Of a stretch of DNA of 46,450 nt, positions 22,608-37,632 are shown piece after piece (the stretch's first letter is position 1; every line of letters begins with the position of its first letter). Below the pieces are notes generated by a model that was not told where the DNA came from, ran no database searches, and was given only the letters and a program-made list of their open reading frames with translations. Source of the DNA: Candidatus Limnocylindrales bacterium. Lineage in GTDB: Bacteria > Moduliflexota > Moduliflexia > Moduliflexales > JAUQPW01. The stretch spans positions 62,001 to 108,450 of the forward strand of contig DATMBG010000002.1 of the NCBI GenBank assembly GCA_035559535.1, read 5' to 3'. The translations under genes were made by a program, and so were the position numbers.

Positions 22608-24215
22608 ATGGGAAATTTAAAAGTTCCAGAAGGAATGCAGATAACGGGTAAGATTACCCCAGAATTTGAACAAATATTAACTTCCGAAGCCCTAAACTTT
22701 ATAACCAGCTTGGAACGGGAGTTTGGAGAACGTCGCCGGGCCCTTCTACAAAAGCGAGTTGAAAGGCAGGCCGAGATCGATGCCGGTCAGATGCCTGATT
22801 TTTTAGCTGCCACCGAAAATATTCGGAAGGGTTCCTGGAAGGTGGCCCCTATTCCAGCGGATTTACAGAAACGGTGGGTTGAAATTACGGGACCTACCGA
22901 TCGAAAAATGATGATCAATGCCTTTAACTGTGGTGCCGATATATTTATGGCAGACCTGGAGGACGCCAATTCACCGACCTGGCAAAACATGGTAGAGGGA
23001 CAAATCAACCTGCGGGATGCTGTTGAGAGGAAGCTGGAATTTACCAGCCCGGAAGGAAAAAGTTATAAACTCAACGAACAGATCGCAACCCTGTTGGTAC
23101 GTCCAAGGGGCTGGCATCTCCATGAAAAGCATGTTTTGATCGATGGTAAACCCATGTCCGGTTCACTCTTCGATTTTGGCCTCTACTTCTTCCATAATGC
23201 TCGAAAACTGGTAGAAAAAGGAACCGGACCTTACTTTTATCTCCCCAAGTTGGAAAGCCATCTGGAGGCCCGACTCTGGAATGATGTCTTTGAAATGGCT
23301 CAGGACACACTGGGTATTCCCCGGGGTACCATTAAAGCCACGGTACTTATTGAAACGATTCTGGCGGCTTTTGAAATGGATGAGATTCTCTATGAACTCC
23401 GGGATCACATCGCAGGACTCAATGCGGGACGTTGGGATTACCTGTTCAGCATCATTAAAAAGTTCCGGAACCGATCAGACCTTAATTTGCCGGATCGGGC
23501 TCAGATAACGATGACCGTACCATTTATGCGGGCCTATACAGAACTCCTTGTCAAAACCTGCCACCATCGCGGAGCCCACGCAATTGGAGGTATGGCTGCC
23601 TTCATTCCCAGCCGTAAAGATCCCAAGGTTAATGAAGTTGCTCTGGCCAAAGTTCGTGAGGATAAAGAGCGTGAATCCAGAGACGGTTTCGACGGTACCT
23701 GGATCGCACATCCCGATTTGGTTCCTGTGGCCCGGGAAGTGTTTGAAAAAGCTTTACAGGGTAAACCCCACCAGAAAGAGCGGCTAAGGGAAGAGGTCCA
23801 GGTCTCGGCAAAGGACCTGCGGACCTTTGTGGTACCTGGGGGTCAAATCACGGAAGGAGGGGTTCGTAATAATATTAGCGTTGCCTTACAGTATATTGAA
23901 TCCTGGCTCCGAGGTATCGGTGCGGTGGCTATCTTTAATTTGATGGAAGATGCAGCGACTGCAGAAATTTCCAGATCTCAATTATGGCAGTGGGTCCATA
24001 ATCCCCATGCTGTCCTCGATGATGGACGAAAGGTAACCGTTGACCTCTATCGCGCCTGGCTACCCGAGGAATTGGAGAAGATTAAATCCCTGTTCGGCGA
24101 AGCACGCTATCGTACAGGAAAATTCGACCTGGCTCGACAAATTCTGGATAAGCTGGTGCTGGAGAGAGATTTCATCCAGTTTTTAACTTTGCTTGCCTAC
24201 GATTACCTGGATTAG
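22608..24215 (+). CDS. aceB: Malate synthase A
   Basis: [66 protein letters not shown]. Confidence 0.97.
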
Positions 24216-24380: not shown

Positions 24381-27300
24381 TTAGCCGGCTTGAAGAAGGG
24401 CCTCGTGCATAGCTTCTGCCACGATTTCTTCTGGATGGGCATAGTGGTAATCGCGGAGCTGGTAGTAGTAAGAACGGACACGGGATAACTGGGGAATAAG
24501 GCTTTTACTGAGCTCTTGAACCCGATCTCTCAGAATGGCTATCTGCTCCATTTCCAATCTTATACCCATAAAATGAACGATATGCAACAGGGTCTTGACC
24601 TGCTCGGTTTCCAGAAACTTGTTCTCAAGGATCCTTAACTTGGCTTCTATAAGAAGCATCTGGTAAAGAAGGGCATTCTTCTCCTTGGAGGCTTTCATAG
24701 CTCCCAACTGGCCTAAAAGGGCCTGATACTCGAAAGCCCATTCGGGTAGGGTAGATTTCGTGATAACATTAACCTTGGAAAGCGTTCGACCGAAGAAGTC
24801 CAGGAGTTGACTGAATTTCGAATAGGCATTGTTTTTAAACCATATTTTAATGGTTACAGGACAGTTTTTCATTCTGCCGATCAGGGAATTAACTTTGTCT
24901 TGCTCTTCTCTTAACTCCTCGATGAGAGTTCCTAAATTCTCACTTTTACGCTTGAAAACTTTTTCAAGTTCCCGCGTGCCAGGGGAGTATGGTAGCATGA
25001 GCTCCAGATCTATAAGCCTCAAGTCAAGTAAATCTTGAGCCGTTTTTTCCAACTTTTTGAGCTTTTCATTTGCCTCCCGGTCTAAAATCAAGGCTCGGGT
25101 TTTAGAAAGTAAATTCTCCAACTTCTTTTCCTGTTCTTTTATTTCAATGGCAATCTTCCAACCCATTTGCTTGAGTTTTTCCCTGTCTGCTTCCAGGTCA
25201 TCCGGGCCATTATTACCTTTATCTACCGGTTTTTCTTCAAAGGCCGGCTTTTCTTCTTTTCCCTCTTCTACTTTATACCTCGCCACCCATCTTTTAGAAC
25301 TCCCAGGAGTGGTAACCCGGTCAATCATGCGTTCTAACTCTTCCGGATTTTCGCTGAACCCACTGAAAATAATGGTCTGAGCCTTTTCCTTCAGTTCAGA
25401 AATCGTCTCTGCCAGCTCTTTATCCTCCAGGGTTAATAATTCTAAAATTTCGGCATCTATCCCTTCTAAAGTTGCCTCTTCAAGGGTCAAGGTACTGTCT
25501 AAGTGAGCTATTCTCCAAAGTATTTTATGATACTCTAGAAGGATCCGGTAAGCTTCAAATAAATAGTTCAGTTTCGGGTCATTGTATTTTTTGAAACTCA
25601 TAAGTTCCGGCTTAAGAGCACGGAAGAGGGTAATGTCCCTCAAGTTATAGGCCGACATCGCAAAAACAATCCCGCTGATTAGAACGGTGATCGCATAGGA
25701 AAAATCTTTGGAATAGGCCAGATCGGAATTGGAAATTAACAGCTTAGAAAAAGGGCTAATGAGGGCAAAGGTCTCGTCTAAAATAGCTTTGGATTGTGGC
25801 TCAACGATTTTATCTCGAATAAAAGTTGCCTTAGCAAATAAATCCAAAAACCTCTCCCGATCATCTAATTCAGTCTTAACAGGTTTTACTGCAGGAGTTG
25901 GTAATTGGGTTTTTTGTAAAATACCGAGAAACAAAATAAAATCCTGGGCTGTAAAACCATCGCTTATAAAATGATGGGTTAAAACCTCCAGAATTTCTTC
26001 TAAAACTGCCTTCCGAATTTTTGAAGAACCGGGATCTAAAAAGGTTTCCAGTTTTTTATTCAAAATTTCTCTATATGCTGGCGGGCAACCCCTGTTCAGG
26101 AGAGCCATAAGGGATTTTTTAGCTTTGATTTTTTCAGAAGGTTCAGAAGAATTAGCCAGTTCACCGAGTCTGGTTTTAAGTGCCGTTTTGTACTCTTCGC
26201 TTTTACTGTATACACAAATTTCATGAAACAGAAGTTCAAATTGCTCTTCTTCCAGCCGGGTCGGAATAACGGCCATGGCTCCCTTTAAAAACTCCTGTTT
26301 AATTTCTCCATCTACATCCATGGGAGACTCAGGCTCTGGAAAATCTTCAGGATGATAAACTTTCCGCACTGTCTGTTCATCTGGAACGATCGGTATAAGA
26401 TCTTCTGATCTGGCCGCAGAGCAGAGGGTTTCAATCAGTAAACCCTCCCGACAGGTTTTGGGTTGAATCGTTTCTCCCTGCTGATGAGTTTCAGGAAACC
26501 CGTACCCGGTAATTGGAGAAGGAAGAGCGGTCAAAACCGGGAGTTTCTTCCCATCAGGCCCATTTGACAGGATGTTAACTTCCGCAAAGTCTTTTTCCCC
26601 CATCCGGGTTGTCTCCTGGGTTAATTCAGGAAAAGTTTTATTCAAAGATAATCCGATACCGGAGGGGATCAAAATCTCTACTCTGGGAGCAAGATTTTTT
26701 AACCAGGTCGCATCGACTTCTGGACAATTCAGGCAGATAAAACCATTGGCCGGAAATCCTCCTGGATCGGAAGATCTTAAGTGAGAAGATCGGGCTTGAA
26801 GACTTCGTAAAGCCAGAAAGCCTATGATCACACCCAGGTCGTAACAGATGAAGACCTTTCGTCCCTTCGGGATGAGTTTGTAGAGGAGACGTAAATTTTC
26901 CAATTTTAATAGAAGAACTTCCAGCCATTGAGAATATCCTTCGGTAGGAAACGCTCCAAAGGGGTATGCCGTCGTCTTAAGGGGCAGGGTTCTCCAACCG
27001 GGTACCTGGTACAAAGGAACAGATTGAAAACCCAAACCGGGTATTACAATAAGTAGATCTTCAACACCCTCTCGGGCTAATTGATAAATCCGCTGTTGAG
27101 TCAGTAGGGCATCGGTAACCTGGCGCATAACGGAACCAATACCGGGTTTTCTGCCCATATATAAACTGTCTTGATCGTTTTCCTCCTCAGGTTTCAGGTC
27201 TGCTCTGACGAAATATCGATCATGACCCTTTTCAACCTCTACCAGATTCCAGACTTGCTGAGAGGCTGTTTTATTACCCAAATCGGGAATGAGAAATTGC

Positions 27301-29351
27301 CTGATCTCATGGAGATTCTGACTCGTAGAGAGGATATGAACTTCCAGGGGAACTAAATTTTGGTTGATCAATTCCTGGGCTGAAGAGAAGTTTTGGGTAA
27401 TGGTAACAGGACCTAAATATCGAACAATTGTCTCTTCACCCAGCCGAAGCTCCAGATATCTTATATTTTCTGTTAAGTTTTTTGCAGAAATGGCGAATCG
27501 CTCAATCTCTCGATAATAATTCGCTACCATTTTATCTATCCCGTTCAGTCTTTTATAGAAGTGGATAAGCTCCTTAACGGTTATAAAAGGCACATCGAAC
27601 TTATGCACGGGAACTAACTTCAAGAGGTCATAGTTTAAGCTTTCCCTGATGGCTTGTTCTAAATGAAGGGGATAGCGGGAATGTTGAGTATTGGACCTTT
27701 TACCTTTCAAACCCTGCCGGTGAACAAATTTGCTTCCCAATAATTCCTCGAGCTCCTGATCGTTGAAAACCCAATCTAATTCTATATGGAATATCTCTCT
27801 CAAGCCTTTACAAACCTGTCGGGGAGTAACCATCAAGTCGGTTCTTTCTGCTGCCTGGATAACGGTTTGATAAAGCAGTTCATCCTCCACCAATTCGATA
27901 AGTCGAGGCCTGATCTCTGCAAGAATTGCCAGTAATGCCGTCCGACCTCTGATAATTTCTTCGCTGACACCATTCGCAGTAGCATGGGCATACCGGTAAT
28001 ACCATCTTTTAAACCCTTGATTATGTTTGTGTTTCCTGCCGTTTGAACCAGAATGATGAAGAATTTCATTTAGCAGCCAAAGCTCCCGATTGGACAGGCG
28101 TTCTAAATCTCCTTCTCTCAGTTTTTCTAATAGAATCTCCAGTTCTGGCCGTTCTTCCTCTTCTTCGCCCAAGAACAGTAAAAACAGGTCTCCTATTTTT
28201 CCCTTGAGCATCTTTACAGTGTCCCTTGCCAGAAGGATTCGATCTTCTACAATTTCCGGATCAAACAAATCCTCATAGACGATCATAAATTTATCTGCAA
28301 AGTTAAGGGAGGATCTGGGATCCTTTTTCGTTTCTGTTCCGTATATTTTTATAAAATCCCCACAGGCTTCGTGAAAAGTTACAGAAAATCTACCTTTTTG
28401 GCTCTCCTTGATCTTTTTATATCTTTGAAGGCGCTCCAGGGTGGGTGCAAGGTTTAGGTCGGCAGAAAGTTTTAAGTTATGCTGGTAAAAGAAATTTAAA
28501 TAATCCAGTATTTCTCCCAACTGCTCACCGGATACTATCAGATCAGACATCCGATGGACCACATCCATTAAATTTTGATCTATGGCCGAAGATGGATCCA
28601 ACTCGTAAAAAACCGTGATATCATCTGTATCCCAATGGTTTTTCTTGATTTGAACCAGGAAATGGGTCAGCAGGGATAATTTGAGTTCCCACAAACCCTG
28701 GTTGAGGGTCTGCAGAATATGGGTTTTGGAGTGTTGGGTGCCGGTCTGGAATTTAAGTTGAAGGGCAGGGTCTTTTAAAATTCGTTCCAATATTTGATAT
28801 TCTTCACCTAAGATCTCCTTACCCTCTGAATTTTTGCGCTTTAGAATCTTGCCGTAAGCCTCTAAAATTTTAACGGGATCTGCGAAAATGCAGAGATACT
28901 CCGCCAGATAGTCTAACAAAATTCGTGCTACACCCTCATCATAGCGCTCCGTGATGGGTCTACCCAGTTGATGACGCAGGAGTGCCACATAATCCTGGAT
29001 TGCCAAGATGATTTCTAGAGGAAATCGTGCATTAAAAAGAACTTTACCCTCCTTTTTGATATCTTCCAGCATCGAGATGATTTGACATTGGGCATGGTCT
29101 AACCTTTCCAGGATACGATTCAGCACTCCTCTCCATTTAAAGTACTCTTGCCAGGCTTTAGAATCTTTTTTGATGTGCACCACCAATTTAGTGGTATCAT
29201 AATTCCATACTTCACAGGCCTGAACATTTTGCTCGACCATTGCCTGAAGCGAGGACAATCCTTTTATAAAAAAATCAGGAGAGTCTAAAGGATACTCCCT
29301 CTGGATAAAACACTTTTCCCTGGGCAATTGTAAAAAATCACTTGAATCCAT
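24381..29351 (-). CDS. Very large hypothetical protein (1656 aa): helical N- and C-terminal regions, central alpha/beta-hydrolase-like segment
   Basis: Uninterrupted 4971-bp ORF. Leu/Glu/Lys-rich, coiled-coil-like C-terminus. LIVIPGLG...VFICYDLGVII...GFICLNCP at about aa 765-880. Confidence 0.85.
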   Translation of the reverse strand: MDSSDFLQLPREKCFIQREYPLDSPDFFIKGLSSLQAMVEQNVQACEVWNYDTTKLVVHIKKDSKAWQEYFKWRGVLNRILERLDHAQCQIISMLEDIKKEGKVLFNARFPLEIILAIQDYVALLRHQLGRPITERYDEGVARILLDYLAEYLCIFADPVKILEAYGKILKRKNSEGKEILGEEYQILERILKDPALQLKFQTGTQHSKTHILQTLNQGLWELKLSLLTHFLVQIKKNHWDTDDITVFYELDPSSAIDQNLMDVVHRMSDLIVSGEQLGEILDYLNFFYQHNLKLSADLNLAPTLERLQRYKKIKESQKGRFSVTFHEACGDFIKIYGTETKKDPRSSLNFADKFMIVYEDLFDPEIVEDRILLARDTVKMLKGKIGDLFLLFLGEEEEERPELEILLEKLREGDLERLSNRELWLLNEILHHSGSNGRKHKHNQGFKRWYYRYAHATANGVSEEIIRGRTALLAILAEIRPRLIELVEDELLYQTVIQAAERTDLMVTPRQVCKGLREIFHIELDWVFNDQELEELLGSKFVHRQGLKGKRSNTQHSRYPLHLEQAIRESLNYDLLKLVPVHKFDVPFITVKELIHFYKRLNGIDKMVANYYREIERFAISAKNLTENIRYLELRLGEETIVRYLGPVTITQNFSSAQELINQNLVPLEVHILSTSQNLHEIRQFLIPDLGNKTASQQVWNLVEVEKGHDRYFVRADLKPEEENDQDSLYMGRKPGIGSVMRQVTDALLTQQRIYQLAREGVEDLLIVIPGLGFQSVPLYQVPGWRTLPLKTTAYPFGAFPTEGYSQWLEVLLLKLENLRLLYKLIPKGRKVFICYDLGVIIGFLALRSLQARSSHLRSSDPGGFPANGFICLNCPEVDATWLKNLAPRVEILIPSGIGLSLNKTFPELTQETTRMGEKDFAEVNILSNGPDGKKLPVLTALPSPITGYGFPETHQQGETIQPKTCREGLLIETLCSAARSEDLIPIVPDEQTVRKVYHPEDFPEPESPMDVDGEIKQEFLKGAMAVIPTRLEEEQFELLFHEICVYSKSEEYKTALKTRLGELANSSEPSEKIKAKKSLMALLNRGCPPAYREILNKKLETFLDPGSSKIRKAVLEEILEVLTHHFISDGFTAQDFILFLGILQKTQLPTPAVKPVKTELDDRERFLDLFAKATFIRDKIVEPQSKAILDETFALISPFSKLLISNSDLAYSKDFSYAITVLISGIVFAMSAYNLRDITLFRALKPELMSFKKYNDPKLNYLFEAYRILLEYHKILWRIAHLDSTLTLEEATLEGIDAEILELLTLEDKELAETISELKEKAQTIIFSGFSENPEELERMIDRVTTPGSSKRWVARYKVEEGKEEKPAFEEKPVDKGNNGPDDLEADREKLKQMGWKIAIEIKEQEKKLENLLSKTRALILDREANEKLKKLEKTAQDLLDLRLIDLELMLPYSPGTRELEKVFKRKSENLGTLIEELREEQDKVNSLIGRMKNCPVTIKIWFKNNAYSKFSQLLDFFGRTLSKVNVITKSTLPEWAFEYQALLGQLGAMKASKEKNALLYQMLLIEAKLRILENKFLETEQVKTLLHIVHFMGIRLEMEQIAILRDRVQELSKSLIPQLSRVRSYYYQLRDYHYAHPEEIVAEAMHEALLQAG

Positions 29352-29690: not shown

Positions 29691-30815
29691 ATGAAATCGG
29701 TTATAAAGTCTAGAGAACAACGTATCGCATATTTTATCTCTCCCCACGGTTTTGGCCATGCAGCCAGGTCGGCTGCGGTCATGCAAGCCTTACAGGAGCA
29801 AAATCCAGGGATTCAATTTGAGATTTTTACCCGGGTACCGGCCTGGTTTTTCCGAGAATCCTGGATAGAAAATTTTAATTACCACCCTTTGTTAACAGAT
29901 ATTGGACTCGTACAGAAAACCCCCTTGATAGAAGATCTTGGGGAAACAGTCCGGCAATTAAATCACCTCCTGCCGTTTGATTTTTCTCAAATTCAGAACC
30001 TGGCAGAATGGATTAACAGGCTAAACTGCCAGCTTGTGGTCTGTGATATTGCCCCCATGGGGATTGCCGTAGCCAAAGAAGCCGGAATTCCTTCCGTATT
30101 GATCGAAAACTTTACCTGGGATTGGATCTATGAAGGATACCTGGCTCAGGAGCCCGGATTAAGTTCTCAGATAAACTACCTGCAGGGGTTATTTAACCAG
30201 GTAAATTACCGTATTCAAACGGAACCTGTCTGCGCCTATCGCTCAGCCGATCTTATAACCCCACCGGTGAGTCGGAAAGTCAGAACCCCTCCCCTCCAAA
30301 TTCGGGAGAAATTAGGGATATCTCCCCAGGACAGGATGGTTATGATCACCATGGGGGGAATCCCCGATCAATACAGATTTCTAGAGGAATTGGAGCGCCA
30401 GCACGATGTTTATTTTGTGATTCCTGGAGCCGGGGAATCCTTGGAGATTCGAGGCACCCTCATCCTTTTACCCCACCATTCTAATTTTTACCACCCGGAT
30501 CTGATCCATGCCTGCGATGCCGTTGTCGGTAAATTGGGATATAGCACCCTTGCAGAGGTTTATTATGCCGGGGTTCCTTTTGGTTATGTTATACGATCCA
30601 AATTTCGGGAGTCTCAGGTACTGGCCGCCTATGTACACCGCAAAATGAGGGGTTTAGCCTTTGCAGAAACGGAATTTCAAAACGGAAACTGGTTGTCAGG
30701 CTTATCAGAGCTGTTGGCTTTACCTCGAATTTATCCGGACCATCCCAACGGAGCCACCCAGATCGCGAATTTTATTCGCCCATTACTCGATCTTATCGGT
30801 TCCTCCACTTCCTAG
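29691..30815 (+). CDS. GT-B fold glycosyltransferase-like protein (resembles the N-terminal domain of L-arabinokinase)
   Basis: AYFISPHGFGHAAR, VVCDIAP, NFTWDWIY, ITMGG, DAVVGKLGYSTLAE, R..F.E. Confidence 0.82.
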   Translation: MKSVIKSREQRIAYFISPHGFGHAARSAAVMQALQEQNPGIQFEIFTRVPAWFFRESWIENFNYHPLLTDIGLVQKTPLIEDLGETVRQLNHLLPFDFSQIQNLAEWINRLNCQLVVCDIAPMGIAVAKEAGIPSVLIENFTWDWIYEGYLAQEPGLSSQINYLQGLFNQVNYRIQTEPVCAYRSADLITPPVSRKVRTPPLQIREKLGISPQDRMVMITMGGIPDQYRFLEELERQHDVYFVIPGAGESLEIRGTLILLPHHSNFYHPDLIHACDAVVGKLGYSTLAEVYYAGVPFGYVIRSKFRESQVLAAYVHRKMRGLAFAETEFQNGNWLSGLSELLALPRIYPDHPNGATQIANFIRPLLDLIGSSTS

Positions 30816-32690: not shown

Positions 32691-34106
32691 ATGAACCTAC
32701 AAGAAATCTCTTCCTTCAATATTCGCCAGCTTTCCACTGCTTTTGCCAGGAAAGAACTTTCTCCGGTAGAAGTCGTCCAGGCCATTTTCTCTCACATCAG
32801 TGAAACGAATCCCCGGTTTCATGCTTTTATTACCATTTTGCAGGAATCAGCCCTCCAAGAAGCTAAAGAAGCAGAAGCCAGGTTCCGTTCTGGTAACATT
32901 TTCGGTCCCTTACAGGGGATCCCCATAGCCCATAAGGACATTATTTATACCCGAGGTATTCCTACTACCGCAGCGTCCAAGGCTTATGCCGATTTTATTC
33001 CCTCGTACGATGCAACCGTGGTAACACGCTTAAAAGCTGCCGGAACGATTCTTATAGGTAAAACCAATTTACATGAGATTGCCTTTGGACCGACCAGCGC
33101 CGTATCCCATTACGGACCGGTGAGGAATCCCTGGAATTTAGAACACATTGCCGGGGGTTCCAGCGGGGGATCTGCCGTAGGAGTTCTCGTTAAATTATGC
33201 TGGGGGGCTACCGGAACCGATACCGGGGGATCTATTCGAGTCCCTGCTTCGGCGTGCGGAGTTGTGGGAATAAAACCGACTTACGGCAGAGTAAGTCGCC
33301 ATGGAGTAATTCCTCTGGCCTGGACCCTGGATCATATAGGTCCGATAACGGGATGTGTGGAAGATGCCGCTTTGTTACTGGAAGCCATGGCCGGATATGA
33401 CCCCAATGATTTAACCACCAGCCAGCAACCGGTTCCCAACTACATCCGGTCCCTTACCGGGGATATTCGAGGTCTCAGAATTGGGGTCCCCAAAGAGTAT
33501 TTCTTTGAACGGGCCGAGGACGAAGTAATACAGGCAGTTCGCGAAGCCATCCGGGTATTGGAAAATCTGGGGGCCTATCCTGAGGAAATTTCGCTCCCAC
33601 ATATGAAATATGCCCCTTTGGTCCGCGGGGCTATTATCTTTGCAGAGGCTAGTGCTTACCATGAAAAAGCCTTGCGAACAAGATGGAAAGACTTCTCTTC
33701 CGATATTCAGGGTAAACTCACCCTGGGAGCAACCATTCCAGCCAGGCGCTATATTCAAGCCCAACAAGCAAGACGCCTGTTAGAAAGGGACTTTCTTAAC
33801 GCTTTCCAACGTGTGGATGTGATCATCACCCCCACACTTCCGGTTGTTCCTCCCAAAATCGGTGAGGAGGTCGTTAAGATCAAAGGGACAGAAACCGATA
33901 TAGCCGGAGCTCTTATCCCGTTCACTTTTCCCTATAATGCAACGGGTTTACCTGCTATCTCCGTTCCTTGTGGATTTTCAGCTTCGGGATTACCTATCGG
34001 GTTGCAGATTGGAGGAAAACCCTTTGACGAGGAAACCGTCCTTCGAGTTGCCTACGCCTATGAGCAGCAAACACCCTGGCGGAATAAGAAAATACCCGGT
34101 CGGTGA
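32691..34106 (+). CDS. Amidase signature family enzyme (GatA/AtzE-like)
   Basis: GIPIAHKD (Lys), GKTNLHE, GGSSGGS, GTDTGGSIR. Confidence 0.95.
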   Translation: MNLQEISSFNIRQLSTAFARKELSPVEVVQAIFSHISETNPRFHAFITILQESALQEAKEAEARFRSGNIFGPLQGIPIAHKDIIYTRGIPTTAASKAYADFIPSYDATVVTRLKAAGTILIGKTNLHEIAFGPTSAVSHYGPVRNPWNLEHIAGGSSGGSAVGVLVKLCWGATGTDTGGSIRVPASACGVVGIKPTYGRVSRHGVIPLAWTLDHIGPITGCVEDAALLLEAMAGYDPNDLTTSQQPVPNYIRSLTGDIRGLRIGVPKEYFFERAEDEVIQAVREAIRVLENLGAYPEEISLPHMKYAPLVRGAIIFAEASAYHEKALRTRWKDFSSDIQGKLTLGATIPARRYIQAQQARRLLERDFLNAFQRVDVIITPTLPVVPPKIGEEVVKIKGTETDIAGALIPFTFPYNATGLPAISVPCGFSASGLPIGLQIGGKPFDEETVLRVAYAYEQQTPWRNKKIPGR

Positions 34107-34163
34107 GGAAAGAATCCAGAGTATAGGGCAAGTAGAGGTTTGATGCGAGTGCTTTTCCCCCAT

Positions 34164-34250
34164 TTATTCTGAACCCTCCCCTCGGTTCAGGATAAACTTA
34201 TGGAAGGGCAATCCCTACCGGCACTGGGATCGCCCTTCGATTTTGCTCAG
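34164..34250. repeat. Tandem hairpins resembling a degenerate palindromic repeat element
   Basis: TTATTCTGAACC..GGTTCAGGATAA and GAAGGGCAATCCC..GGGATCGCCCTTC, then CCCTTCGATTTTGCTCAG, between convergent genes. Confidence 0.55.
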
Positions 34251-34324
34251 ATGCTTGGGGTGCAGCAGCTTGTCCACCTTGCCAAAATGAACATAACAAA
34301 ATAATCGGTACACCTAATATTAAC

Positions 34325-35794
34325 CTAACCTTGAAAAGTTAAATAAAGATAGAGGATTCCCATACCGACATAGGCAAGAGTACATAAACCCATTAAAATC
34401 TGGGTGATGGGATGGGGTTTGATCCAGTTGGGAAAAACTTTAGGAAGCAGGACATAATTCAGATAGATAAGACCCGGACAGAAAAAACCCATAGCTAAAA
34501 ATGAAACAACCCCACGAAGGACAATCAATTGACCGGGTTGGGCCATCGCCATGGTAATAACGGTTAATACGGTAAATATCGCTACAAAGATATAATACCA
34601 AGTTCGGTAATGGAGTTTTTGAGCTCCCGGAATGTTGGAGTAAAAGAAATCGGCCTGGACGCGGGAATAGCCGTCGGTAAGTTGTAACCAGGCATCACAG
34701 AGGAAAGCGGCAGCCACAATGAGAAACAGGGCTTTACCTATAGGACCCCAGGCCACTTCAAAGAAGGCAGATTGCACCACGGCGATTTCCCATCCCTTGG
34801 GGATTTTACCTTCCGGTAACAGAAGAGCAAAGGCGAGCCAGCACATAATCATGGTGGTAAGGAAATTTAAAAAAACTCCGATAAAGTTCTCGAAACTAAA
34901 ATAATGGACCCAGCCTTTATAATTTCGCTTATTTTCCTCGGTATCCGTGAAAAAAAAGCCCGTAGCAGGGATTGCTTCCGCTTCCCCTGTGATCGGTGAA
35001 GTAACCCGTCCGATAATTTTCCCCATTCCGATTCCTTTATCGCGCATCCAGTAACCGATGAATAACTGACCAAAACCCCCTGCTCCGGCAAATGCAATGC
35101 TGGTAACCAGGGTATTTAAATCCTTAGGATCCCAATTTTCTACCTGGCTCGGTAAGGTCAAACGAGGAATTAAAGCAGCAAAGAAATCCCCACTTACTGC
35201 AAGAACTTTTTCCTGGAATAAAGCAAAAATAATCCCGGTCATGGTAATAAACACAACCACCATGGAAAATTTTTCAATAATATTGTAGACCACTCGACCG
35301 AAGATCAGGGCGATCAGATAGATCCCAATGGTCAGGTAACCCCAGAACAAAGACTGACCCCTCGGAGTCCAGCCTGATGGGAATCCCGTCAGGGCAGCCA
35401 GGGCAGTACCTCCGGCAGAAGCATAGGCACCAAACCAGGCATTCTCGATAAAGATTCCAATCCACATGATCCAGGCATATACCCGGCTGACTCTACTAAA
35501 GCCGGTCATAGGTGTCTCACCCGTTGCAACGGTATAGCGACAGATTTCTAGATTCACCCAATATTGAAGCATAGAGGCCGGAATTAATAAACCCAAGAAC
35601 GCAGCGCCATACTTGGCCGTCAAATAGGGCCACCAGATAAGTTCTCCAGAACCCTGAGCCAAGGCAGCCCACAAGATACCGGGTCCTATATAAGCAAAAA
35701 TTCCCATAAAGGTTGGAAGTGTTGCTAATTTAAGAGGAGCTAAATTTCCCAAGAAAGCCTCCTCAGCAGTTCTAGAAGCTATATTTTTCGCCAT
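34325..35794 (-). CDS. Nramp-related (APC superfamily) membrane transporter
   Basis: About 11 TM segments. IGPGILWAALAQGSGELIWWP and EICRYTVATGE. Lacks the canonical MntH DPGN motif. Confidence 0.85.
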   Translation of the reverse strand: MAKNIASRTAEEAFLGNLAPLKLATLPTFMGIFAYIGPGILWAALAQGSGELIWWPYLTAKYGAAFLGLLIPASMLQYWVNLEICRYTVATGETPMTGFSRVSRVYAWIMWIGIFIENAWFGAYASAGGTALAALTGFPSGWTPRGQSLFWGYLTIGIYLIALIFGRVVYNIIEKFSMVVVFITMTGIIFALFQEKVLAVSGDFFAALIPRLTLPSQVENWDPKDLNTLVTSIAFAGAGGFGQLFIGYWMRDKGIGMGKIIGRVTSPITGEAEAIPATGFFFTDTEENKRNYKGWVHYFSFENFIGVFLNFLTTMIMCWLAFALLLPEGKIPKGWEIAVVQSAFFEVAWGPIGKALFLIVAAAFLCDAWLQLTDGYSRVQADFFYSNIPGAQKLHYRTWYYIFVAIFTVLTVITMAMAQPGQLIVLRGVVSFLAMGFFCPGLIYLNYVLLPKVFPNWIKPHPITQILMGLCTLAYVGMGILYLYLTFQG

Positions 35795-36180
35795 TTTGTA
35801 CCTCCTTGAAAAGAACTTTCTCCTGTGCTTATTGGAGAAAATCTTGGTTATTTGGCCTAATCATCCCACCATCTTATCCTCACCCTCATCCTCACCATAC
35901 CGGGAAGGATAAATCAAGCAAAAAATACGGAAATGGTATTAAAAAATAAAGGATTGACTTTTTTCCAAGGACCGACTATACCTGACCGAATATATCCTTG
36001 AGGTTAAAACTTCTTGGAAGGAGAGAAAATTCTTAAAAAAATCCATCCAGGAGCCAAGATATGAGGATAATCCCACAGGCTTTAGGCCTAATGGATCTTT
36101 TGGAGCAAGATATTCCATTTTGTATCCAAACATTTCGGGTTTAAAGTAAGATAATAAAAAGTAAGATAATAATTGATTCC

Positions 36181-36208
36181 GTAAGGGCACGACGCGCCGT
36201 GCCCTTAC
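36181..36208. repeat. REP-like palindrome (GTAR class)
   Basis: GTAAGGGCACG-ACGCGC-CGTGCCCTTAC, 11-bp perfect arms, directly 5' of the amidase RBS. Confidence 0.85.
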
Positions 36209-36225
36209 TAAAGGAGGAAGATTTT

Positions 36226-37632
36226 ATGAACCAAGAAGACCTCTGTTTTATGCCGGCAACCGACCTGGTAGCAGCTTTTCTGGCGAAGAAATTATCTCCT
36301 GTAGAGGTTATGGATGCCGTTATTGCACGGATTGAACGAATCAATCCCATAGTAAATGCTTTCTGTACCTTAACCCTGGAAGAGGCCCGTCAAAAAGCAA
36401 AGGAGGCTGAGGTAGCCATCATGCGAGGAGATCGCTTAGGGCCTCTGCATGGAGTTCCTGTCTCCATTAAAGACTTAGTTATTACCAAAGGGGTAAGGAC
36501 CATGCGGGGATCTAAAATTTATGAGAATTATATACCCGATGAAGATGCCCCGGTGGTAGAGCGCTTGCGGGATGCCGGAGCCATTATGCTGGGTAAGACG
36601 ACCACCCCAGAGTTTGGATGGAAGGGCGTGACCGATAGTCCGGTTACCGGCATCACACGTAACCCCTGGAATCTGGAACGGACCTGTGGAGGATCCAGTG
36701 GGGGAGCTGGGGTTGCCGTTGCGGCAGGTCTGGGGCCGATTGCCCAGGGTTCTGATGGTGGAGGATCGATTCGTATCCCCAGCAGTTTTTGTGGCATTTA
36801 TGGTCTAAAACCTACGTATGGCCGGATAGCCGCTTATCCCCCCAGCGCTATGGAGACCTTTTCCCATCTGGGTCCGATGACCCGAACGGTCAAAGACGCA
36901 GCTCTTATGATGCAAGTCATGGCTGGTCCTGACGAGCGGGATCGCCTCTCTCTCCCCGCCCAAAATATAGATTATCTGGCCGCCACCGAGGGAGATATTC
37001 GCGGGCTCCGCGTGGCCTGGAGTGTCGATTTGGGTTATGCCGCTGTCGATCCGGAAGTGGCACGAATCACCGAAGCGGCTGCGAAGGTATTCATCGATTT
37101 AGGATGTCAGGTAGAAGCGGTCGATCCGGGATTTGGGAATCCAGAGCCCTTTTTTGCAATCTTTTGGATCGGAGGAATCGGTACCTTTATCAGTGATTAC
37201 CTTCCCAAATGGGAATCCCAAATGGACCCGGGACTGCTTACGTTTGCCGAGCAACTCAAGAGTCTGACTGCAAAGGACTATGTCCAGGCTACTTTTAAAC
37301 GGGTAGAATTCTGGCAAAAGGTCCGAAAATTCTTTGAGAAATACGATTTGCTTCTGACCCCTTCCGTTGCAGTACCTCCCTTCCAGATCGGGATCAACTC
37401 ACCTCCGGAAATCGCAGGTGAAAAAATTTCCTGGATCAACTGGACGCCTTTTACCTATCCTTTTAATCTCACCGGACAGCCTGCTGCTACGGTCCCTTGT
37501 GGTTGGACCCAGGATGGGTTACCGGTTGGTCTACAAATTGTAGGTCGACGCTACGATGAAGCCACCGTACTCAGAGCCTCGGCGGCCTTTGAGAGGGCAA
37601 AACCCTGGGCAAATAAACGACCGAAGCTATAA
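36226..37632 (+). CDS. Amidase signature family enzyme
   Basis: ATG at 36226 after AAGGAGG. GVPVSIKD, GKTTTPEFG, GGSSGG, GSDGGGSIRIP. Confidence 0.95.
   Translation: MNQEDLCFMPATDLVAAFLAKKLSPVEVMDAVIARIERINPIVNAFCTLTLEEARQKAKEAEVAIMRGDRLGPLHGVPVSIKDLVITKGVRTMRGSKIYENYIPDEDAPVVERLRDAGAIMLGKTTTPEFGWKGVTDSPVTGITRNPWNLERTCGGSSGGAGVAVAAGLGPIAQGSDGGGSIRIPSSFCGIYGLKPTYGRIAAYPPSAMETFSHLGPMTRTVKDAALMMQVMAGPDERDRLSLPAQNIDYLAATEGDIRGLRVAWSVDLGYAAVDPEVARITEAAAKVFIDLGCQVEAVDPGFGNPEPFFAIFWIGGIGTFISDYLPKWESQMDPGLLTFAEQLKSLTAKDYVQATFKRVEFWQKVRKFFEKYDLLLTPSVAVPPFQIGINSPPEIAGEKISWINWTPFTYPFNLTGQPAATVPCGWTQDGLPVGLQIVGRRYDEATVLRASAAFERAKPWANKRPKL

Follow-up and report, generated by a model that had tools for sequence, protein, structure and literature searches.

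A possible degenerate alpha/beta-hydrolase-like module in a giant orphan protein of a Candidatus Limnocylindrales bacterium

A giant reading frame with lipase-like motifs

In a stretch of the Candidatus Limnocylindrales bacterium assembly GCA_035559535.1 (contig DATMBG010000002.1, positions 62,001-108,450; these 46,450 nucleotides are called the window, and window coordinates are used throughout), a single minus-strand open reading frame (ORF) at 24381..29351 has a stop-free translation of 1656 amino acids (aa), a protein labelled P0001 here. The gene is monocistronic, lying convergent with a malate synthase gene (22608-24215, plus strand) and divergent from a glycosyltransferase gene (29691-30815, plus strand), and the same gene order is found around its homologue on a contig from a congener (L003). 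Comparison with the gene of this congener yields a ratio of nonsynonymous to synonymous substitution rates (dN/dS) of 0.24 overall, and the P0001 gene is under purifying selection.

The initial annotation of this DNA had proposed that the middle of the protein conceals a cryptic alpha/beta-hydrolase domain, marked by five motifs in canonical order and spacing, with an Asp in place of the nucleophile at the so-called elbow. We were able to locate all five motifs within the 1656-aa ORF, in the order given, together with Asp838 at the elbow motif. The features of the region are listed below by residue and by nucleotide (nt); invariance refers to the six homologues described in the next section, and models 1 and 2 are two AlphaFold2 models, of aa 636-1030 and aa 733-1000 respectively, which were generated from alignments of six sequences only.

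aa 636-735, nt 27147-27446, minus strand: beta-rich subdomain upstream of the alpha/beta part, predicted as beta-beta-alpha-beta-alpha-beta-beta (DSSP of model 1); contains RADLKPEEEN
aa 738-761, nt 27069-27140, minus strand: long helix IGSVMRQVTDALLTQQRIYQLARE; 67% of positions invariant over the measured aa 736-762
aa 766-774, nt 27030-27056, minus strand: LLIVIPGLG, strand and loop at the position of the beta3/HG (oxyanion) loop
aa 785-791, nt 26979-26999, minus strand: GWRTLPL, beta4-like strand
aa 785-799, nt 26955-26999, minus strand: the same strand with its conserved tail, invariant K792 and Y796-P-F-G799
aa 806-820, nt 26892-26936, minus strand: YSQWLEVLLLKLENL, within an amphipathic helix
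aa 806-826, nt 26874-26936, minus strand: the whole amphipathic helix, alphaB-like; 77% of positions invariant over the measured aa 806-835
aa 831-848, nt 26808-26861, minus strand: RKVFICYDLGVIIGFLAL, elbow motif with Asp838
aa 831-855, nt 26787-26861, minus strand: elbow-like strand-turn-helix, consisting of strand RKVFIC, turn Y-D838-L-G840 and helix VIIGFLALRSLQAR
nt 26838-26840, minus strand: codon of Asp838, gtc on the plus strand and GAC in the coding sense
aa 870-877, nt 26721-26744, minus strand: GFICLNCP, motif after the elbow
aa 868-877, nt 26721-26750, minus strand: ANGFICLNCP, beta6-like strand with invariant A868, N869 and G870
aa 890-898, nt 26658-26684, minus strand: RVEILIPSG, beta7-like strand of low conservation
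aa 901-966, nt 26454-26651, minus strand: stretch with His956, 11% invariant and the least conserved of the protein; predicted local distance difference test (pLDDT) 21-28 in model 2
aa 967-982, nt 26406-26453, minus strand: predicted helix EGLLIETLCSAARSED, placed where a minimal alpha/beta hydrolase would have its final helix

The alpha/beta-hydrolase fold is described, in the part of the source drawn on here, as an eight-stranded, mostly parallel sheet of strand order 12435678 with flanking helices (PMC3531081). As in PGAP1/DUF676 proteins (PF07819, PF05057) and class-2 lipases, P0001 presents a strand with an xG-x-G loop, a GW-strand, an amphipathic helix, a strand-Sm-x-Nu-x-Sm-helix element and a strand ending in xxP, in the same order and with the same spacing. 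For the spacing we used 18 bacterial PGAP1/DUF676-like lipase sequences from genomes as a reference. Counted from the Gly of the HG loop, the nucleophile Ser lies 61-89 residues further on in 10 of the 12 that possess an upstream HG, and 35 in the other two; from G772 to D838 of P0001 the distance is 66. In 14 of the 18 a [GSA][ST]P comes 13-39 residues after the Ser, mostly at 26-33, and the distance of 39 from D838 to P877 equals that from Ser to [GSA][ST]P in a giant lipase encoded by the same genome. Both distances therefore fit bacterial PGAP1/DUF676 lipases, as the claim of canonical spacing had it.

The motifs themselves depart from those of this group, since P0001 has PG in place of HG, CYDLG in place of HSxGG and CPEV in place of PHxG. 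The domain is moreover enclosed on both sides by the rest of the 1656-aa chain, which is otherwise without recognised folds. A motif scan of P0001 returned no Walker A, GxSxG, HRD, DFG, HG or Gly-rich GxGxxG. The suggested link to SesB-like effector domains of NLR proteins, whose architecture sets a NACHT or NB-ARC P-loop NTPase beside the lipase-like domain, found no support: P0001 possesses neither a Walker A, nor a GxSxG, nor a Pfam domain.

Elsewhere in the window, at 32691-37632, a 489-aa ORF without a Pfam match (34325-35794, minus strand) is bordered by a pair of amidase paralogues (32691-34106 and 36199-37632, both on the plus strand).

Six homologues and an uneven pattern of conservation

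A collection of 5.8 billion proteins was searched using aa 700-1000 and a full-length profile as queries. Five relatives were found by either query, of 1649-1948 aa and with 51-90% identity over their full length, so that the family comprises six sequences (P0001-P0006). None of the five carries a Pfam domain, and where a name is given it is ‘hypothetical protein’. When phmmer was run exhaustively on 1.84 billion cluster representatives, with aa 700-1000 as the query, it yielded the family itself together with a repeat protein (P0007), which was judged to be a chance match, and a profile of the region had no match at E<=10 among proteins of 217-714 aa. The gene is present in two of the 41 relative genomes searched, namely this genome and that of the congener, which belongs to the same genus; seven genomes of the same order, with a completeness of 77-97%, gave no match for it, and a search for related loci returned only the locus of the congener from genome contigs and none from metagenome contigs. 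One metagenomic member, P0005 (1948 aa), carries an additional N-terminal extension of ~270 residues (alignment columns 13-260) that has no counterpart in the other five.

An alignment of the six sequences was used to follow the residues expected of an active site. Position 838, which would correspond to the nucleophile Ser of lipases, is Asp in four members, but Asn in the other two (P0005 and P0006, where the motif reads CDNLG or CHNLG), so that the Asp noted at the elbow is frequent in the family without being fixed; G840 and G844 are invariant in all six, giving a motif of the form C/G-x-D/N-x-G. Position 875, which follows the beta6-like strand, is Asn in P0001 and Asp in the other five, and a His at 956 is shared by four homologues, with the remaining two having His at 957. 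P0002-P0004 carry D838, D875 and H956 together. Within 841-982, no His or acid (Asp) is invariant across the six homologues, and a catalytic triad of nucleophile, acid and His is not conserved in the family (position 838 reads D, D, D, D, N, N and position 875 N, D, D, D, D, D).

Conservation is unevenly distributed along the region. The fraction of invariant columns over 721-840 is 0.55-0.62, the joint highest in P0001 (0.62 at 801-840), whereas over 841-1000, taken in blocks of 40 residues, it is 0.15, 0.18, 0.08 and 0.22. The three lowest interior blocks of P0001 fall here, and elsewhere similarly low values occur only at 441-480 (0.12) and at 281-320 and 1361-1400 (0.15). Conservation in P0001 is lowest over residues 841-1000, and dN/dS is 0.175 for 736-840 as against 0.416 for 841-1000. 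Conservation is retained in the loops that the predicted strands lead into at their C-terminal ends (P771-G-x-G-F-Q776, K792, Y796-P-F-G799, x-G840 and A868-N-G870); in the first of these P771, G772, G774, F775 and Q776 are invariant in the six homologues, with the Pro standing where lipases have His. In the helices at 738-761 and 806-826 the polar faces are invariant as well.

Profile, language-model and structural comparisons

The six-sequence profile was compared by hhalign with family alignments built from genome matches, for five families in all. The best of the five was the comparison with 18 PGAP1/DUF676-like domains (score 23.9, Prob 3.3%, P 0.013, 81 columns, aa 763-852), and its register is the expected one: LLIVIPGLG falls on the HG loop, VPGW on the G[W/y] that precedes beta4, the amphipathic helix on alphaB, and RKVFICYDLGVIIG on kv.lVgHSMGGlvaR, which places Asp838 on the nucleophile Ser. 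A reversed query scored 10.8, and 23.9 was reached by none of 40 column shuffles (maximum 20.2) and none of 115 block shuffles (maximum 23.3), that is, by none of 155 shuffles in total. An SDR alignment, included as a control, scored 17.3 with the forward query. The PGAP1/DUF676-like signal is weak, lying barely above noise.

A feature search of the ESM-Atlas points in the same direction. With aa 730-990 of P0001 as the query, all neighbours that bear a family assignment are alpha/beta hydrolases (DUF676, DUF900, Lipase_3, PGAP1, Abhydrolase_6 and Abhydrolase_8; scores 0.89-0.91), and with aa 765-1005 of the ~53% identical P0006 they again come from the alpha/beta-hydrolase clan only (Abhydrolase_1, palmitoyl thioesterase, Lipase_3, DUF676, PGAP1 and Lipase_2; scores 0.89-0.90). 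We treat these language-model neighbours as a lead, not as proof. They include families of the PGAP1/DUF676 type, the group with which the profile comparison aligned best.

Secondary-structure assignment by DSSP showed that the two low-confidence models agree on a helix at 738-760, strands at ~766-770 and ~787-790, a helix at 808-826, a strand from 831/832 to 835/837, a helix from 839 to 854/855, a strand at 870-873, a helix at 878-887 and a strand at 892-894, beyond which an unmodelled stretch is followed by a helix at ~967-982. Five strands thereby alternate with helices over aa 766-894. In both models Asp838 lies between strand and helix, a placement that hints at the strand-turn-helix elbow proposed for it, even though pLDDT is only ~40. 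Among weak structure matches, the Foldseek list for model 2 is headed by 3bdv, a YdeN-like alpha/beta hydrolase (E 0.04), and also contains thioesterases, CALB, APT1 and hydroxynitrile lyase alongside HypB, TrpA and others. A comparison of model 2 by VIA-align against 48,161 chains, in which best Z scores of 7-8 are typical of models without a true match, gave its longest aligned spans with alpha/beta hydrolases, at 133-149 residues (4qnn, Z 5.8 over 149 residues; 1auo, Z 5.1 over 141).

The same genome encodes undoubted members of the families in question. Two Abhydrolase_1 proteins (L062 on contig C57 and L073 on contig C22) have an Asp at the elbow, in GHDWG and GHDRG, and match the family at E values of 8.8e-34 and 1.7e-33. 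A second giant ORF, L060 (contig C21, 1521..6029, minus strand; 1502 aa), has a hydrophobic N-terminus and a genuine PGAP1/DUF676-type lipase domain (LILIHG, IIAHSMGG, ATPHHG; DUF676 E 9.3e-9, PGAP1 E 5.5e-8), beyond which the chain runs on into long repeat regions, and shows no similarity to P0001.

Several results weigh against placing the region in this fold. Searches with sequence models found nothing that would identify it: Pfam assigned P0001 in its entirety to no family at E<=1 and gave no alpha/beta-hydrolase family for the aa 636-1030 pieces of all six members at E<=10, NCBIfam gave no match for P0001, the family profile had one chance match in PDB (E 1.5), and exhaustive phmmer reached no family beyond that of P0001 itself. 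A single-sequence phmmer search of PDB likewise returned chance matches only, and PADLOC gave two chance rows for P0001 (E 0.023 and 0.043), both outside the region. The Prob of the best hhalign comparison is just 3.3%, whereas true alpha/beta-hydrolase families detect one another at Prob 99% and 93%; the SDR null with a reversed query scored 22.4; and neither Abhydrolase_1 (score 15.5, Prob 0.2%, wrong register) nor Lipase_3 (four sequences only; score 12.1, Prob 0.06%) gave a signal. By the calibration of the tool, language-model scores of ~0.9 arise in 4-10 of 100 shuffled proteins, and the counts of shared features are low (122-142 of 256). Taken alone, the elbow pattern in its relaxed form, [GASC]x[SDC]x[GAS], is unspecific, with four occurrences in P0001. 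As to structure, mean pLDDT is 41.5 for model 1 and 37.0 for model 2, with predicted template modelling (pTM) scores of 0.45 and 0.31, the prediction puts no helix between the beta3-like strand and the beta4-like one, and the topology of the core strands would suit a flavodoxin-like fold equally well. With Foldseek, neither model had a match at E<=0.001, and in VIA-align the best Z for model 2 was 6.2, with ANL ligases, enolase-superfamily barrels and TrpA lying within one Z unit of one another and of roughly a dozen small alpha/beta hydrolases. Membership of the alpha/beta-hydrolase superfamily is unproven, and the evidence from hhalign and the language model that the arrangement of motifs exceeds chance is only moderate. 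In favour of the initial proposal stand the spacing, the weak profile alignment, the language-model neighbours and the place of Asp838 between a predicted strand and helix in both models; no match to a structure or a sequence model was significant.

Competing readings and a proposed role

We favour, at roughly even probability, a reading in which aa ~760-985 form a non-catalytic, degenerate alpha/beta-hydrolase-like module. On this reading the residues would make up a doubly wound alpha/beta domain, a very divergent and catalytically dead derivative of the small lipase-type fold of PGAP1, DUF676 and class-2 lipases. Asp and Asn are exchangeable as helix N-caps, and the residue at 838 would occupy the position of the nucleophile elbow without being a nucleophile, serving instead as a helix N-cap or a hydrogen-bonding residue. 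The domain would then act as a scaffold for a ligand or a protein partner, perhaps by way of a pocket and without covalent catalysis, within an otherwise largely helical protein; a scaffold role is proposed because the conserved features are the strand-end loops and the two near-invariant helices (738-761 and 806-826). Judged from its residues, catalysis by the domain is unlikely; with a putative catalytic Asp that is not conserved, the domain most likely serves as an inactive module for binding or scaffolding rather than as a new enzyme. Of the two options first put forward, a pseudo-lipase used for ligand binding and a switch to Asp chemistry, the former is accordingly the better fit to a position 838 that varies between Asp and Asn and to the missing triad, although the fold itself is not established; against the latter stand Asn838 in two of six members, the want of any invariant His or acid in 841-982 and the poor conservation of the half that should supply them.

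Known proteins offer parallels. In the sections of the sources drawn on here, non-catalytic proteins of the alpha/beta-hydrolase fold are described as common and well known (PMC3531081), and in ABHD5/CGI-58 (PMC9694394), neuroligins and thyroglobulin's C-terminal domain (PMC3531081) the nucleophile is replaced and the fold serves partner binding. The Asn153 reported at the elbow of non-catalytic ABHD5, in the same portion of that source (PMC9694394), parallels Asn838 in two of the six P0001 homologues. Those proteins, unlike P0001, are recognisable by sequence, with the rest of the fold conserved; in P0001 the second half of the domain is where conservation is lowest, and its place in the fold is unproven. 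A difference from the PGAP1/DUF676 type is likewise that the nucleophile position is D/N, that acid and His are not conserved, and that neither Pfam at E<=10 nor hhalign recovers the relationship with any confidence.

The main competing reading, which we hold to be possible though distinctly less probable than the degenerate hydrolase, is a generic Rossmann-like or flavodoxin-like three-layer alpha/beta domain without alpha/beta-hydrolase ancestry, in which a buried strand and a Gly-rich helix start have converged on lipase-like motifs. The structure matches would suit it, being mixed alpha/beta folds at Z 4.8-6.2 and Foldseek E>=0.04, as would the lack of signal from two of the three alpha/beta-hydrolase profiles, the closeness of the null comparison (22.4) to the real one (23.9), and a second half in which the expected acid and His loops are neither conserved nor modelled. 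It accounts less readily for seven collinear elements with lipase-like spacing, for a profile alignment that falls in the expected register and exceeds 155 of 155 shuffles, and for two ~53% identical homologues whose family-bearing language-model neighbours come exclusively from the alpha/beta-hydrolase clan. An active hydrolase with Asp838 as its nucleophile, in the manner of haloalkane dehalogenases and epoxide hydrolases (Abhydrolase_1), has a precedent, as Asp nucleophiles occur in this fold according to the portion of the source consulted (PMC3531081), and it can draw on the Asp at the elbow position of four of six members and on the formally complete Asp/His/Asp set of D838, Asp875 and His956 in P0002-P0004. 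P0005 and P0006 have Asn838, however, and P0001 has Asn875; His956 aligns across the six only with a one-residue shift, in surroundings that are the least conserved of all; and the true Asp-type enzymes of the same genome score ~1e-33 to PF00561, where P0001 has no match and an hhalign score of 15.5 in the wrong register. We regard an active Asp838 enzyme as very improbable, and active Asp chemistry for the family as a whole as unlikely. Slightly less improbable, if still doubtful, is a pair of further possibilities: either that Asp838/Asp875/His956 chemistry belongs to an unseen alpha/beta-hydrolase branch, of which P0001 with its Asn875 and the distant copies with Asn838 would be recently inactivated sensors, or that a new alpha/beta fold mimics lipase motifs in a giant family confined to one candidate-phylum lineage.

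Two further ideas were considered. A very divergent protein-kinase-like or pseudokinase module at aa ~636-880, with CYDLGVIIG as an alphaF-like helix and RADLKPEEEN as a relic of the catalytic loop, is raised by the weak Foldseek matches of model 1, which are nearly all protein kinases (E 0.0075-0.06, TM ~0.12), by the VIA-align superposition of aa 640-719 on kinase N-lobes (Z 4.3-5.0 over ~70 residues) and by a local hhalign pairing of RYFVRADLKPEE with iiHRDIKPaN. The profile comparison with 23 bacterial protein-kinase domains nevertheless gave a score of 16.7, Prob 0.3% and 19 columns, below the reversed control at 17.4; P0001 has no HRD, DFG or GxGxxG; the distant homologues have Ser or Asn in place of Asp764, which stands where HRD would fall; and model 1 is of low confidence. 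With neither profile nor motif support, the kinase idea was dropped as scarcely probable. A membrane-spanning or inserted helix at 833-851 with G840xxxG844, in place of a buried strand-turn-helix, was less probable still: no other 19-residue segment of P0001 is as hydrophobic (Kyte-Doolittle mean 1.9), and basic residues lie on both sides of it, but P0005 and P0006 have D/H, N, R and P there and mean hydropathies of 1.09 and 1.05, both models give a strand and then a helix, and no signal peptide or other membrane architecture lies nearby. This idea was dropped too.

Several observations stand beside these ideas. The invariant R-x-D-L-x-x-E-E-N of the aa 636-735 subdomain locally resembles the kinase HRDLKPxN loop, without profile support. 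Genomes G002-G008 of the same order contain many Pkinase matches in open frames of ~1600-1690 aa, often clustered, which look like a lineage family of giant Ser/Thr kinases; no relation between these frames and P0001 was detected. For a second conserved hydrophobic stretch, FSYAITVLISGIVFAMSAY (aa 1217-1235, nt 25647-25703, minus strand), the Kyte-Doolittle means of the six members all lie within 1.44-1.71; it may be either a buried helix or an anchor in the membrane.

If the degenerate hydrolase-like module is correctly identified, a lipase-type scaffold would have been eroded to a non-catalytic module within a giant orphan protein from a little-known bacterial lineage, to a degree that lies beyond current family models. 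It would help to annotate six sequences now called ‘hypothetical’ and would provide a test case for remote-homology methods. Our understanding of hydrolase chemistry would be unchanged, because Asp838 is not conserved. For the 1656-aa protein itself, the domain is the sole handle so far on its role.

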